From NCBI GenBank assembly GCA_022180565.1, contig BQML01000019.1:19381-83380 (forward strand): DNA of 64,000 bases, read 5' to 3'. Position 1 is the first letter of the stretch. Each line of letters opens with the position of its first letter. The translations under genes were made by a program, and so were the position numbers. The notes below the pieces were generated by a model. It saw only the letters and a list, made by a program, of their open reading frames with translations. It did not search any database and had not been told where the DNA came from. Of the stretch, positions 56,781 to 60,294 are shown one piece after another. The DNA is from Bacteroidia bacterium. Lineage in GTDB: Bacteria > Bacteroidota > Ignavibacteria > UBA10030.

Positions 56781-56981
56781 ATGAAATCCTTCGCAAAAAC
56801 CTTGTTCCTGATTGTCGTGCTTTCAGTTACGGGCCTAGGCCTGTTGCAAGCCAATTCCGCAGCTGCAGGACCGCAATGGTGTTCGGTCGTCTGTCCTGCA
56901 AACTGCTTTCACGGTTCGTGTCAATGCGAAATTAATCCCAACTGGGACTGCCTGACTTGGTGCCAAAGCGGATGCCCGTAG
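56781..56981 (+). CDS. small Sec-exported cysteine-rich peptide precursor (66 aa; predicted ~37-aa mature peptide with 8 Cys)
   Basis: ATG 56781 preceded by GGAGGT at 5-nt spacing; MKSFAKTLFLIVVLSVTGLGLLQANSAAAG signal then GPQWCSVVCPANCFHGSCQCEINPNWDCLTWCQSGCP (C-x3-C-x3-C-x4-C-x-C-x7-C-x3-C-x3-C); the ORF-track start 56751 adds an implausible N-terminus. Confidence 0.6.
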   Translation: MKSFAKTLFLIVVLSVTGLGLLQANSAAAGPQWCSVVCPANCFHGSCQCEINPNWDCLTWCQSGCP

Positions 56982-57125
56982 AGAATGTTCGACGGAATGA
57001 GCGCTGTCACTCTGATCCACATTCTTGACTTTCGGGGGTGGGGATGGTACCTTTCACCTGAAAATCTCCAAGGGAGTCGAACGACCTGGTTTGAGGAGTC
57101 CCACGACCTGTTCCCTTGTCGACTT

Positions 57126-58070
57126 ATGAATCGATGGATACATGGTCTCGTTCTTCTGATACTGACTCTCAGCCTGGTTTCGTGCAACCAGCCGTTTGAC
57201 CCTCATGGGCCTTTCGAGAATCTCCCTGTTGTCTTCTGCATTCTCGATGGCTCTCAAGACGTCCAGTTTCTCCGCCTGTACACGACTTTCCCCGAATCCC
57301 GGGAAACAAATGTCGAATACCCCATTACGGGTGCCAATGTTGAGGTCACGACGCCCGCTGGGGTAATGATGTTCCGCGATACAACTCTGCCCCGCGTTGA
57401 CACGTCGGTGTTCAAATCCCCCCTTCAAATGTATGCTTCACCTTTTCAACCTCTCTCCGGCCAATCCTATGCCCTCCGCATTCTCTCCCCGCTCGGTGAG
57501 GCCGCTTCAGAAATAACTCTTCCGGCTAACGCCAATTTGACAATCCAAGGTTCCTTCTTTCTCCAGAATCCTCACCAGTCCCCGGAAGACAGCAAGGTTT
57601 TCGTCTTGACAACCCTCTCGGAAGGCGCAAAAGGGTATGTCATCCGCCTTTTTGTTCACTTCGATATCATCAGCGGCGGGTCCAGAGTGAGCCATAGCAC
57701 CGAAGTCCCGATTCTCATCAAGAACAAAGATTTCTCAACGGCTGTGTTCCCGACATTGCGGCGAAAAACCGTTGCCAATGGCTTTGAAGTCTATCCTGTG
57801 GAATTCTATGCATTGACACTTTCGGAAATCCAGAAACGACACCCGACGGGACAGATTGTGTTCCGGAAAGCTGCATTGATCACGCTCCAGGCGGAAGAGA
57901 ATCTGTACAACTATTTCTCGATCGTGAATGCCTTCAATGATCGTTACAGCATCAGAGTGGATGAACCGGAATTCACGAACATCATCGGAGGTCGGGGATT
58001 GTTTGGAGGATTCTCCATCGACTCCCTCATCGTTGACTTGCCGCCAAACTTCCCATACAACAGACCGTAA
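57126..58070 (+). CDS. DUF4249-like lipoprotein
   Basis: ~314 aa from ATG 57126: MNRWIHGLVLLILTLSLVSCNQ lipobox; C-terminal NIIGGRGLFGGFSID motif of the DUF4249 family, which is habitually paired with CarbopepD-type TonB-dependent receptors; longer ORF from 56985 lacks signal peptide. Confidence 0.65.
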   Translation: MNRWIHGLVLLILTLSLVSCNQPFDPHGPFENLPVVFCILDGSQDVQFLRLYTTFPESRETNVEYPITGANVEVTTPAGVMMFRDTTLPRVDTSVFKSPLQMYASPFQPLSGQSYALRILSPLGEAASEITLPANANLTIQGSFFLQNPHQSPEDSKVFVLTTLSEGAKGYVIRLFVHFDIISGGSRVSHSTEVPILIKNKDFSTAVFPTLRRKTVANGFEVYPVEFYALTLSEIQKRHPTGQIVFRKAALITLQAEENLYNYFSIVNAFNDRYSIRVDEPEFTNIIGGRGLFGGFSIDSLIVDLPPNFPYNRP

Positions 58071-58074
58071 CAGC

Positions 58075-60294
58075 GTGAGAAGTGCGGATCGCATATTGGT
58101 AGGTTGGACTGCTTTGTTCCTGGGCGCGTGGACCACTGCATCAGCCCAGAATGCCGTTCTGAAGGGATACGTGCGTGACCAGTTGACAGGAGAACGAATT
58201 CCCTATGCGAATGTGATCCTCGCGGGAACCCCCTTAGGAACGGCCGCCAACGACGTTGGATTCTTCCTCATCGACGTGCCGCCCGGCCGATATTCCCTGA
58301 GGGTAAGCGCCGTGGGATACAGCGTGAAGGATTCCACAATCCACATTGACGCTGTTCGCGCCTTTGAAGCGAACATCGCCCTCACCCCGACGGCCATTGA
58401 AACCGATGAGGTCGTTGTAGATGCTCATCTGCGTACCGAAACAACCGCCGATCAGCCAAGCGTCCACTTTCTTGAGCGATCGGAACTTACCACTGTTCCG
58501 GCGACAAGCCAACCTGATGTCCTCCAGTCTCTCGGAATCCTTCCGGGAGTGGTCTCGACATCCGACGTGAGCTCGAAGTTCCATGTCCGCGGAGGGTCCG
58601 GCGATCAGAATCTCGTTCTTCTCGACGGAATCAAGATCTTCAATCCGTTCCATGCGCTTGGGCTGTACAGCGTGTTTGACCCCGACATCGTGCGGCACGT
58701 TCGCGTTCATACCGGGAGCTTTGGCGTCGAGTACGGGGGCCGATTGTCTTCCGTAATCACCATCCAATCGCGAACGGGAAGGGAGGATAGATTCTCTGCT
58801 CAAGCCAACGTCAACTTTCTTTCGACAAAGCTCCAGATGGAGGGACCGGTTGCCAACCATTCGTCGTTCTTCCTGAGCGCCCGCAGGTCGGTCTTCTCGA
58901 GGACGATTTCAAGACTCACCCATACCAATCTCCCCCTTCAGTTCTACGACGTTTTTGCAAAGGCCACCTTTGAATCCGAATCCGGGGTCAAGATCGACAT
59001 CCTCGGGCTTCTGACCGATGATCGGCTTGCTCCAGGGGAAGAGGACTATCCGCATTTCGCCTGGAGTAATCAGGTGGCCGGACTGACCGTCTCCGGTCTC
59101 CTTTCGGATCGCCTTTTTACTCAGGCGTCCGTTTTCACCAATGGATTCACACATACACAAACAACAAGTTCCGCTCCAACAACGAGCTCTGTTGCTGAAT
59201 CCGGCGTCAGAGCCCAAGCGACATATTATGCGCAAGATCGGAGTCTCTACTATTTCGGCTTCGAGTTCACGTTCCCGGTCATCGAGTACATCGTCACAAA
59301 CAATCTTGGTGAGAGGGTACGGCTCTACAGCATTCCCCCCGAGGCTTCCATTTGGGCAGGATACGAAGACACATTCAAAGGAGGACTCACGCTGAGCGCA
59401 GGATTGCGGGGGGAGGTCGGATCGATGTTCAGGAGAGGATTCCGCACCGAATACCTGCAACCACGCATCACGGTTGCCAAGTCTTTGACGGCCACGGTGA
59501 GGGCGAAGATTTCGTATGGGAGAATCACGCAGAACCTGGCGACGCTGACAAACGAGGACGACGTCATATCCATTGTGGACCCCTGGATCGAAGTACCGCA
59601 GTACTTACGGAGCCAGATTGCCGATCATTGGGTCGCGGGCGTGGATTGGCAGGCCGGTCTCACCACCGCCATCGGAATTGAAGTCTACGCCAAACGATTC
59701 AGTTCCCTCCTTGTCTACAACAGGAGGAAAGTCGACGAACTCGATCCTGACTACATCAGCGGAAAGGGAATTGCCTACGGGGTGGAATGCCTCCTTCGGA
59801 CAAATCCACGTCCGTTTGATTTCTCTTGCGCGTATTCCTTGAGCTGGGTTGAAGTAAACAACCTGGGATTGACGTATCCGCCGCGGTATGATCGACGACA
59901 TTCCATCAATGTCGTGGGGACGTGGACCGTGTCCCAGGGCTTGTCGGTAACTGCACGCTGGCAATTCGGAAGCGGCTTCCCGTACACGCAAACAAACGGC
60001 TCTTATTACCGATTGACCCTCAAGGACGCGATTCCGGGCCCATTTTACCATGAAACGGGTGAACTCTTTTCTGTGTATGGGAAGAAAAATGCCGCGAGAC
60101 TTCCCTCCTATCACCGCCTGGACGCAGGTGTCAGCTATGAATTCTCAGTTTTTGGCTCATTCGAGGGAGCGCTGAACATCACGCTCTTGAATATGTATGA
60201 CAACAAGAATATCCTGTACTTTGACAGGAAAAGAGGTTCAAGGGTGGACAACATAGGATTCTTTCCCTCAGCCAGCCTTACCCTCGGATTCTGA
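58075..60294 (+). CDS. TonB-dependent receptor with N-terminal carboxypeptidase-regulatory-like (CarbopepD_reg) domain
   Basis: ~739 aa from GTG 58075 (4 nt after DUF4249 stop): signal MRSADRILVGWTALFLGAWTTASAQ; CarbopepD-like VLKGYVRDQLTGERIPYANVIL...GRYSLRVSAVGY; plug domain; 22-strand barrel region ending in aromatic SASLTLGF. Confidence 0.85.
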   Translation: MRSADRILVGWTALFLGAWTTASAQNAVLKGYVRDQLTGERIPYANVILAGTPLGTAANDVGFFLIDVPPGRYSLRVSAVGYSVKDSTIHIDAVRAFEANIALTPTAIETDEVVVDAHLRTETTADQPSVHFLERSELTTVPATSQPDVLQSLGILPGVVSTSDVSSKFHVRGGSGDQNLVLLDGIKIFNPFHALGLYSVFDPDIVRHVRVHTGSFGVEYGGRLSSVITIQSRTGREDRFSAQANVNFLSTKLQMEGPVANHSSFFLSARRSVFSRTISRLTHTNLPLQFYDVFAKATFESESGVKIDILGLLTDDRLAPGEEDYPHFAWSNQVAGLTVSGLLSDRLFTQASVFTNGFTHTQTTSSAPTTSSVAESGVRAQATYYAQDRSLYYFGFEFTFPVIEYIVTNNLGERVRLYSIPPEASIWAGYEDTFKGGLTLSAGLRGEVGSMFRRGFRTEYLQPRITVAKSLTATVRAKISYGRITQNLATLTNEDDVISIVDPWIEVPQYLRSQIADHWVAGVDWQAGLTTAIGIEVYAKRFSSLLVYNRRKVDELDPDYISGKGIAYGVECLLRTNPRPFDFSCAYSLSWVEVNNLGLTYPPRYDRRHSINVVGTWTVSQGLSVTARWQFGSGFPYTQTNGSYYRLTLKDAIPGPFYHETGELFSVYGKKNAARLPSYHRLDAGVSYEFSVFGSFEGALNITLLNMYDNKNILYFDRKRGSRVDNIGFFPSASLTLGF

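Follow-up and report, generated by a model that had tools for sequence, protein, structure and literature searches.

A small gene for a cysteine-rich peptide of 66 amino acids (aa) is located upstream of the genes for a DUF4249 lipoprotein and a TonB-dependent transporter in a Bacteroidia bacterium genome (contig BQML01000019.1), of which we analysed a stretch of 64,000 nucleotides (nt), referred to here as the window. We conclude that the respective open reading frame (ORF) is a real gene and a member of a new small exported protein family. New are a MauE/thioredoxin module that is dedicated to the peptide, the recent deletion of this module in the window, and the association of a new small-protein family with a known transporter type and with disulfide machinery of a known kind. 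Our favoured reading, to which we assign a probability of roughly 0.45, is that the peptide is knotted by disulfides and would act at the neighbouring lipoprotein lid and transporter.

The initial annotation of the window described the peptide, DUF4249 and transporter genes as three plus-strand genes, which are separated by 144 nt and by 4 nt (the latter from the DUF4249 stop codon to the transporter GTG). Both the layout and the gaps were confirmed; only the start of the DUF4249 gene had to be moved, from 57127 to 57126. The features of this unit are as follows.

56768..56772, plus strand: ribosome-binding site GGAGG, 6 nt before the ATG of the peptide gene (read from the sequence)
56781..56981, plus strand: gene of the 66-aa peptide, ATG start to stop (sequence read directly)
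56982..57125, plus strand: spacer of 144 nt between the peptide and DUF4249 genes, no recognisable terminator
57126..58070, plus strand: DUF4249 lipoprotein, 314 aa, lipobox LSLVSC/N (Pfam PF14054, above the curated cut-off)
58075 (GTG)..60294, plus strand: TonB-dependent transporter, 739 aa, with CarbopepD_reg_2 and Plug domains (Pfam)

A family of exported peptides with eight cysteines

The precursor encoded in the window consists of a Sec-type signal peptide (residues 1-29, ...NSAAA/GPQW) and a mature peptide of 37 aa, which contains eight cysteines (C3C3C4C1C7C3C3), has an isoelectric point (pI) of 4.4 and is devoid of lysine and arginine. A longer ORF beginning at an ATG at 56751 was rejected as the start, because a relative with 82% identity has ATA at this position. 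The GGAGG element in front of the peptide gene is also kept in the related locus L001, and locus L012 has AGGAGG. Compared with the 82%-identical relative, the mature part of the peptide shows six synonymous and three non-synonymous changes, corresponding to a ratio of non-synonymous to synonymous substitution rates (dN/dS) of about 0.10, which is similar to the values for the DUF4249 protein (0.19) and the transporter (0.14).

The peptide had no match in Pfam and NCBIfam, and a profile built from nine family sequences retrieved no PDB chain at E ≤ 10. A word-indexed search of 5.8 billion proteins with the peptide returned a single cluster (P0001, 83% identity), and a two-sequence profile, run exhaustively with HMMER against 1.84 billion cluster representatives, added one distant member (P0013, E = 1e-4). 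P0011 and P0012, which were likewise returned by the two-sequence profile, are repetitive proteins and were discarded as low-complexity artefacts. In addition, 80 loci with relatives of the window DUF4249 protein were fetched, and all of their six-frame ORFs were scanned with the peptide HMM, which revealed five further members (L015, L033, L058, L065 and L076), all encoded on the DUF4249 strand. A final database search with the nine-sequence profile found only P0001, P0013, P0014 (the L058 peptide) and P0015 (the L076 peptide).

The family thus defined comprises seven lineages of Ignavibacteria-like Bacteroidota, i.e. the window and six others, all of which are represented by metagenome-assembled genomes (MAGs) of uncultured organisms. 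The precursors are 66-76 aa long, and every one has a Sec signal peptide with an AxA-like end. Identity of the peptides across lineages is only 29-45%. The mature parts (37-48 aa) contain exactly eight cysteines in all seven lineages, with the spacing C-x(2-3)-C-x(3-7)-C-x(4-7)-C-x-C-x(6-9)-C-x(3-4)-C-x(3-4)-C. Furthermore, the mature peptides are acidic (pI 4.1-4.5) with zero or one lysine or arginine, they contain three to eight aromatic residues (tryptophan, tyrosine, phenylalanine), and they have no conserved histidine or methionine.

A short ORF, which is uncalled in several assemblies and matches no known family, might be spurious. However, it is preceded by a ribosome-binding site, its combination of signal peptide and eight cysteines recurs in seven lineages, and its mature part is under purifying selection. 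Moreover, when small cysteine-rich ORFs from about 100 loci were inspected by eye, this peptide family was the only one with a signal-peptide-like N-terminus. A spurious ORF is thereby effectively refuted.

The gene maps, which were built with phmmer and jackhmmer, show as sole neighbours of the peptide within the cassettes the MauE, thioredoxin-fold, BNR propeller, DUF4249 and transporter genes. No enzyme modifying ribosomally synthesised peptides (radical SAM, LanM/LanB, YcaO and the like) was found next to the peptide in these maps, nor were hallmarks of bacteriocins or microcins such as an immunity-like small membrane protein, a C39/ABC exporter or a lysis gene. The leader is of the Sec rather than the double-glycine type, and the peptide is anionic; its acidic character without basic residues argues against a membrane-active cationic peptide. 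A literature search on cysteine-rich peptides with TonB-dependent transporters in Ignavibacteria returned nothing relevant.

Linkage to the DUF4249 lipoprotein and its transporter

Downstream of every member of the peptide family, and in the same orientation, a DUF4249 gene is located. This holds for the clusters P0001, P0013, P0014 and P0015, which were found irrespective of their context, as well as for the uncalled peptide ORFs in L015, L033 and L065, and the database searches found no family member in any other context. The co-occurrence of the peptide with the lipoprotein and transporter genes thus extends to other genomes, contrary to the lack of co-occurrence that the initial annotation had named as a refutation. 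Its proposal of a peptide-receptor relationship is supported by this conserved gene order; the type of relationship, for which it listed ligand, pilot, piracy and immunity, stays a matter of inference.

Two further findings bear on the linkage. First, it survives the presence or absence of a BNR gene and the absence of the MauE and thioredoxin genes in L093. In four lineages, a protein of 730-850 aa with Asp-box (BNR) repeats is encoded between the peptide and the DUF4249 protein, followed by the transporter (in the L058 lineage, this protein matches PSII_BNR, Sortilin-Vps10 and the type IX secretion system (T9SS) domain Por_Secre_tail in Pfam), whereas in L012, L076/L093 and the window clade the peptide gene directly precedes the DUF4249 gene. 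The order of an optional BNR gene, DUF4249 and transporter is the usual one in this subfamily and not, as had been assumed, an atypical reversal. Second, a neighbour-joining tree, which at these distances is indicative only, intermingles DUF4249 proteins linked to a peptide with those that are not.

The peptide is nevertheless optional. Our census comprised 65 distinct clusters of DUF4249 loci, 28 of which had enough upstream sequence to be evaluated, and six of these 28 carry the peptide. In the MAG MFD04408.bin.2.163, one of five cassettes has the peptide module, while L017, L022, L024 and L030 are without the peptide.

With regard to transcription, the initial annotation had seen no terminator between the peptide and DUF4249 genes of the window, and this agrees with our analyses of the 144-nt spacer, which has no terminator-like site and no hairpin with a T-run, and whose folding is unremarkable (z = 0.22). 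A terminator of its own would have set the peptide gene apart from the downstream genes; while the window has none, a strong one follows the peptide gene in L012, where a perfect 17-bp hairpin and TTTTT are located directly after the gene (positions 447-490; -27.8 kcal/mol for the hairpin with the T-run). The surrounding terminator region of 116 nt has a minimum free energy of -35.5 kcal/mol (z = -4.3). This is the only convincing intrinsic terminator after any family member, and the idea of an own terminator as a general feature of the peptide genes was rejected. In L015, L065 and L076, the peptide gene is followed by spacers of 330-520 nt. Co-transcription of the peptide and DUF4249 genes is thus not universal, as indicated by L012.

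These observations could also mean that the linkage is incidental or regulatory, i.e. that MauE, the thioredoxin-fold protein and the peptide form a self-contained unit, which would work elsewhere and would be located near the cassette by descent. The strong terminator in L012, the long spacers in L015, L065 and L076, the many cassettes without the module and the restriction of the lineages to one narrow group of Ignavibacteria-like MAGs are in line with such an explanation. We consider it unlikely, given that same-strand adjacency is retained in all seven lineages at the low identity mentioned above and despite gain and loss of the BNR and MauE/thioredoxin genes, that no family member was found in another context, and that the DUF4249 proteins with a linked peptide do not group into a single clade.

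The DUF4249 protein of the window matches PF14054 with E = 1e-7 and 32.3 bits (cut-off 28.5; profile positions 13-266 of 269), and its lipobox (LSLVSC/NQPFDP) is conserved in the alignment of its homologues. It adjoins the transporter gene on the same strand. In the transporter, Pfam identifies CarbopepD_reg_2 (E = 2.4e-16) and Plug (PF07715, E = 8e-10) domains; no barrel model of Pfam matched at E ≤ 0.01, and homologues of similar length recur beside DUF4249 genes. Scoring 46.2 bits against the SusC model TIGR04056 (cut-off 368.25), the transporter is not of the SusC type, and no SusD-like gene is located next to it, its partner being DUF4249. The only solved chain that matches the transporter is XusA (9gbc_A; residues 17-239, E = 1.2e-7), and a DUF4249 profile yielded only chance matches to protocadherins in PDB (E ≥ 0.1). 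DUF4249 proteins have been proposed as surface lids of non-SusC transporters, based on BT2173 (DUF4249), which is cofit with the transporter BT2172 and for which binding to the outer face of this transporter was predicted (bioRxiv 10.1101/2023.03.17.533168). By analogy, the DUF4249 protein of the window is a putative surface lid of the adjacent transporter.

Several features of the cassettes were noted in passing. Large BNR/T9SS proteins precede most pairs of DUF4249 and transporter genes (L015 2289-4487, L033 5600-7921 and L065 1669-4002, as well as L058 1607-4159 and 5476-9537), and the layout of BNR and DUF4249 genes looks like that of a polysaccharide-utilisation locus with DUF4249 in place of SusD. 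Many loci contain two to four DUF4249 paralogues in tandem (e.g. L017). An extra ORF of 371 aa, whose N-terminus resembles CarboxypepD_reg by eye, is located between the peptide and BNR genes of L033 (4473-5588).

The redox gene pair upstream of the peptide gene and its deletion in the window

In the initial annotation, the peptide gene was taken as the head of the unit. The comparison with other lineages revealed that its closest partner is instead a pair of upstream genes encoding a MauE-like and a thioredoxin-fold protein. Five lineages share the gene order MauE-like, thioredoxin-fold, peptide, namely the window clade, L015, L033, L058 and L065, and the gap between the latter two genes is only -4 to +30 nt. 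The complete arrangement was found in the relative 'Ignavibacterium sp. MAG-04r' (84% identity), where a PIG-L gene on the minus strand is followed by genes for an AraC-type regulator, a MauE/DoxX-like membrane protein (136 aa), a membrane-anchored AhpC-TSA/Redoxin protein (181 aa), the peptide, the DUF4249 protein, the transporter, a CopD-like protein and a second redoxin. The module of MauE and a CxxC thioredoxin-fold protein is present in L102, L001, L015, L033, L058/L098 and L065.

All MauE-like proteins keep a CGCFG motif, and the thioredoxin-fold proteins all keep an N-terminal membrane helix, a TT[TS]CPFC motif and the cis-Pro motif. The intact thioredoxin-fold protein matches AhpC-TSA/Redoxin, its best NCBIfam models are ResA, StoA and TlpA (also DsbE), and it has no match to the MauD model of NCBIfam at E ≤ 0.01. 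The peptide is the sole cysteine-dense product of the cassette (eight cysteines in 37-48 residues), while the large proteins have one to eight cysteines in 330-780 residues. Homologues of MauE have been reported to replace DsbB in Escherichia coli through their CXC site, and MauE together with the thioredoxin-fold protein MauD is needed for the maturation of the methylamine dehydrogenase complex with its six disulfides (bioRxiv 10.64898/2026.03.05.709764). Judged by this analogy, the native unit looks like a dedicated disulfide module of the DsbB/DsbA type. A literature search combining MauE/DoxX with Bacteroidetes returned nothing relevant.

In the window, this module is not intact; only five codons of the MauE-like gene and about 40 codons of the thioredoxin-fold gene are left, as listed below together with the regulator upstream and the genes downstream of the transporter.

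56082..56581, plus strand: pseudogene of an AraC/HTH_18-type regulator in two frames (ORFs 56082-56363 and 56279-56581; phmmer and alignment)
56612..56628, plus strand: deletion junction, at which the first five MauE-like codons (GTG 56612, MRYMR) are fused to the tail of the thioredoxin-fold gene (comparison with L102)
56629..56750, plus strand: 3' remnant, about 40 codons, of a membrane-anchored TlpA/ResA-like thioredoxin-fold gene (aligns with the gene end in L001 and L102)
60388..60891, plus strand: CopD/DUF2214-like membrane protein, 167 aa (weak Pfam matches below the cut-off)
60899..62113, plus strand: protein of 404 aa, AhpC-TSA/Redoxin (ResA/TlpA-like) domain at its C-terminus (Pfam and NCBIfam; position kept in the window clade)

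Relative to 'Ignavibacterium sp. MAG-04r', the window lacks about 860 nt, a gap that takes away the MauE-like gene along with three quarters of the gene for the redoxin. The extent of the deletion is best seen in L102, which derives from an independent assembly (SRR11182815), is 99.6% identical to window positions 56040-64000 and contains both redox genes in intact form. L102 1-587 corresponds to window 56040-56625 and L102 1441-8812 to window 56629-64000, so that the 853 nt at L102 positions 588-1440 are absent from the window; the same gap is seen against L001. The remnant of the thioredoxin-fold gene aligns with the end of the intact gene (...AYGVPKTLIRQKDGSVRNVWNGKLTVDQLREVAKTLSLY*) in both L001 and L102, and the transporter of L102 was, as in the window, called with 739 aa. 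From the near identity of L102, which retains the redox genes, we conclude that the loss of both genes in the window is a very recent event at strain level. No repeat flanks the junction, which contains about 4 nt of filler. A repeat-driven assembly artefact was accordingly set aside, and an error in the assembly of the MAG is less likely than a true deletion.

The retention of the peptide gene without the redox pair in the window might be taken as evidence of its independence, but this argument was rejected since L102 shows the deletion to be very recent. A peptide gene without the pair is now only represented by the L076/L093 lineage; in L093, no MauE or thioredoxin gene was found within 1 kb upstream of the peptide gene. 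In L012, the first 143 nt, upstream of the peptide gene, hold only an ambiguous remnant of a thioredoxin gene (weak tblastn match, E = 2.7e-4), whose frame is interrupted by stop codons less than 25 nt away from the end of the contig.

The deletion also creates an ORF of 107 codons (56612-56935, plus strand), which uses the MauE start (GTG, MRYMR), crosses the remnant of the thioredoxin gene in a frame other than the original one and covers the initial three quarters of the peptide gene, likewise in a shifted frame. This ORF is probably meaningless, although translation from the retained MauE start could disturb the ribosome-binding site of the peptide gene. Further upstream, the two pieces of the AraC-type regulator match the intact protein of the relative (phmmer E = 2.4e-10 and 6.8e-21), which fits models of the AraC family and carries Pfam HTH_18; in the window, two 1-nt indels split the gene. 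Since the same split is found in the independent assembly L102, the gene is probably a real pseudogene in this species.

Some observations concern genes in the wider surroundings. The CopD/DUF2214-like gene keeps its position in L006-L008, L013, L036 and L102. Together with the redoxin gene, it is located behind the transporter throughout the window clade, and the two represent a second pair of a membrane protein and a thioredoxin-fold protein at the locus. The N-terminal part of the 404-aa redoxin (about 270 aa) has no Pfam match, and a homologue of this protein is encoded about 1 kb after two DUF4249 genes in L048. In L093, the nearest genes upstream of the peptide gene are a toxin-antitoxin pair of the RelE/Xre type on the opposite strand (3656-4260, minus), and about 1 kb of non-coding, GC-rich DNA, hairpin-rich by eye, lies in between. 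Divergently upstream of the unit in the window, a PIG-L family protein of 839 aa is encoded (53510-56029, minus), which resembles GlcNAc-PI de-N-acetylase, has a weak NPCBM_assoc match and whose position is kept in the relative. More distant are two large minus-strand ORFs (1260 and 1440 aa; 16.4-24.6 kb), whose size would fit rpoB and rpoC, and nearby a cluster of five tRNA genes (27750-28781, minus), which represent ordinary core-genome context without relation to the peptide locus. These five tRNAs (27.7-28.8 kb) were the only Rfam matches over the whole window, with none near the peptide locus.

Proposed mechanism and comparison with known systems

The native locus comprises genes for a MauE-like protein (CXC), a membrane-anchored thioredoxin-fold protein (CPFC), the eight-cysteine peptide, in some lineages the T9SS-secreted BNR propeller, the DUF4249 lipoprotein and the transporter. 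According to our favoured reading, Sec would export the precursor, which would then lose its signal peptide at the AxA-type site, as predicted from its sequence. In the periplasm, the thioredoxin-fold protein would oxidise the eight cysteines to four disulfides and would itself be re-oxidised via quinones by the MauE-like protein, acting as a DsbB analogue; we infer this from the coupling of the genes and their motifs, from the peptide being the sole cysteine-dense product and from the published function of MauE. The resulting acidic, aromatic-rich and knotted peptide of 4-5 kDa might then act as a cognate ligand at the adjacent lid and transporter, as their conserved linkage suggests. The cell could either take up this molecule of its own making or use it as an antagonist directed at a receptor, with the resistant receptor encoded alongside. 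Lacking the redox pair, the strain represented by the window would on this reading probably make little or no correctly folded peptide and keep the receptor.

Several points weigh against this reading. The peptide has a Sec signal only, with neither a T9SS C-terminal domain nor a lipobox, and hence no evident route across the outer membrane, which by default makes it periplasmic. Proteins of the TlpA/ResA type are usually reductants, and a TlpA-like reductant could keep the cysteines reduced. The AlphaFold2 model of the precursor (five-sequence alignment) is of low confidence, with a pLDDT of 62 for the whole precursor and of about 50-58 for its mature part; only the signal helix is confident. 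Furthermore, 22 of the 28 evaluable cassettes are without the peptide, which is therefore not a core component; the lineages share ancestry, by which the number of independent co-occurrences is overstated; and the terminator in L012 may divide the peptide and DUF4249 genes into separate transcription units there. An earlier study suggested that MauE might be a reductase, as mentioned in bioRxiv 10.64898/2026.03.05.709764.

Some of these points would fit a periplasmic accessory or thiol peptide, whose cysteines are kept reduced by the TlpA-like protein and which binds a soft metal or another cargo that has come in through the transporter, or docks at the periplasmic CarbopepD/plug side of the latter. 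Besides the missing tag for outer-membrane export, the best matches of the thioredoxin-fold protein to the reductant families ResA, StoA, DsbE and TlpA are in favour of such a role, as is the fact that the transporter gene of the window clade is followed by those of a CopD/DUF2214-like membrane protein and of another redoxin that is TlpA-like, and C-x-C and C-x3-C spacings occur in metal-binding peptides. We regard this possibility as rather improbable. The CopD matches are below the Pfam cut-off and the CopD-like/redoxin pair occurs only in the window clade, MauE has been shown to be a DsbB-like oxidase, and with three to eight tryptophan, tyrosine or phenylalanine residues per 37-48 residues and no conserved histidine or methionine, the peptides differ from classical metallothioneins.

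The lack of an evident export route also raises the question of whether the transporter itself might serve as an exporter, through which the folded peptide leaves the cell in a manner comparable to PopC and Oar in Myxococcus. This would supply the missing route, and the transporter of the window carries a CarboxypepD_reg-type N-terminal domain, as Oar presumably does too; Oar is, however, a much larger transporter. Secretion by a TonB-dependent transporter has precedent in Oar/PopC (Gomez-Santos et al. 2019, PMC6434023), but this is a single case from another phylum, cofitness in Bacteroides marks the DUF4249 pairs as systems of the uptake type, and most cassettes have no peptide to export, which makes this explanation very unlikely.

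Returning to a disulfide-knotted peptide that acts at the lid and transporter, its most specific form would be that the peptide is a gene-encoded cognate ligand, matured by its own MauE/thioredoxin pair, set free by the cell and then bound by lid and transporter (as a ribosomally made 'phore' or a signal that is re-imported), or that the transporter is its outward channel, which we consider conceivable but doubtful. If true, the peptide would be the first identified ligand for the DUF4249 transporter class and would establish a new peptide-transporter partnership in Bacteroidota, and the strain represented by the window would be a natural non-producer, which has kept the receptor and lost the maturation genes. 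Irrespective of this, transporters lidded by DUF4249 occur widely among Bacteroidota, with none of their substrates known, and the genetics of Bacteroides shows only a joint function of lid and transporter; the peptide represents a concrete candidate partner. The locus also provides a natural combination of a MauE-type oxidase and a dedicated small substrate outside methylamine metabolism, and the occurrence of MauE, thioredoxin-fold and peptide genes together supports the proposal of MauE as a general DsbB-like enzyme. The presence and absence of the maturation genes between genomes that are 99.6% identical is compatible with a strain-variable accessory trait.

Among known secreted peptides, the heat-stable enterotoxin STa of E. 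coli follows a comparable path, since its precursor of about 72 aa is exported via a Sec signal, oxidised in the periplasm and then released across the outer membrane. STa differs by its six cysteines, by its dependence on the general DsbA and a TolC-dependent route, and by having no known link to a TonB-dependent transporter, and it is not known to share sequence similarity with the peptide. With regard to the receptor side, the closest parallel is BT2172/BT2173 of Bacteroides thetaiotaomicron (bioRxiv 10.1101/2023.03.17.533168), where, as in the window, a DUF4249 lipoprotein gene adjoins a non-SusC transporter gene on the same strand; in the window, the lid precedes the transporter, and neither a cysteine-rich peptide nor a MauE/thioredoxin pair was reported for the Bacteroides pair. 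XusA/XusB (PDB 9GBC, bioRxiv 10.1101/2024.04.15.589501) likewise combines a surface lipoprotein lid with a transporter, but the similarity is confined to the N-terminal and plug part, the lid belongs to DUF4374 instead of DUF4249, and the ligand is a small xenosiderophore.

The BSAP toxins of gut Bacteroidales (Roelofs et al. 2016, PMC4999547) may serve as a model for immunity by receptor, since the gene of the BSAP antagonist adjoins a non-targeted version of the receptor, and both the BSAP loci and the peptide locus are accessory and strain-variable. BSAPs are, however, large MACPF proteins and not knotted peptides of 4 kDa, for which a role as antagonist would be hypothetical. For the upstream module, the MauE/MauD/MauA system (Gonzalez et al. 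2026) shares a CXC-containing MauE, a CxxC thioredoxin-fold protein and a small, cysteine-dense secreted substrate with the locus described here. The MauE homologues tested as replacements of DsbB came from other phyla (bioRxiv 10.64898/2026.03.05.709764). In contrast to the mau system, a peptide of 37-48 aa would here take the place of the enzyme subunit as substrate, further mau genes are absent, and the redox genes have been lost in the window.

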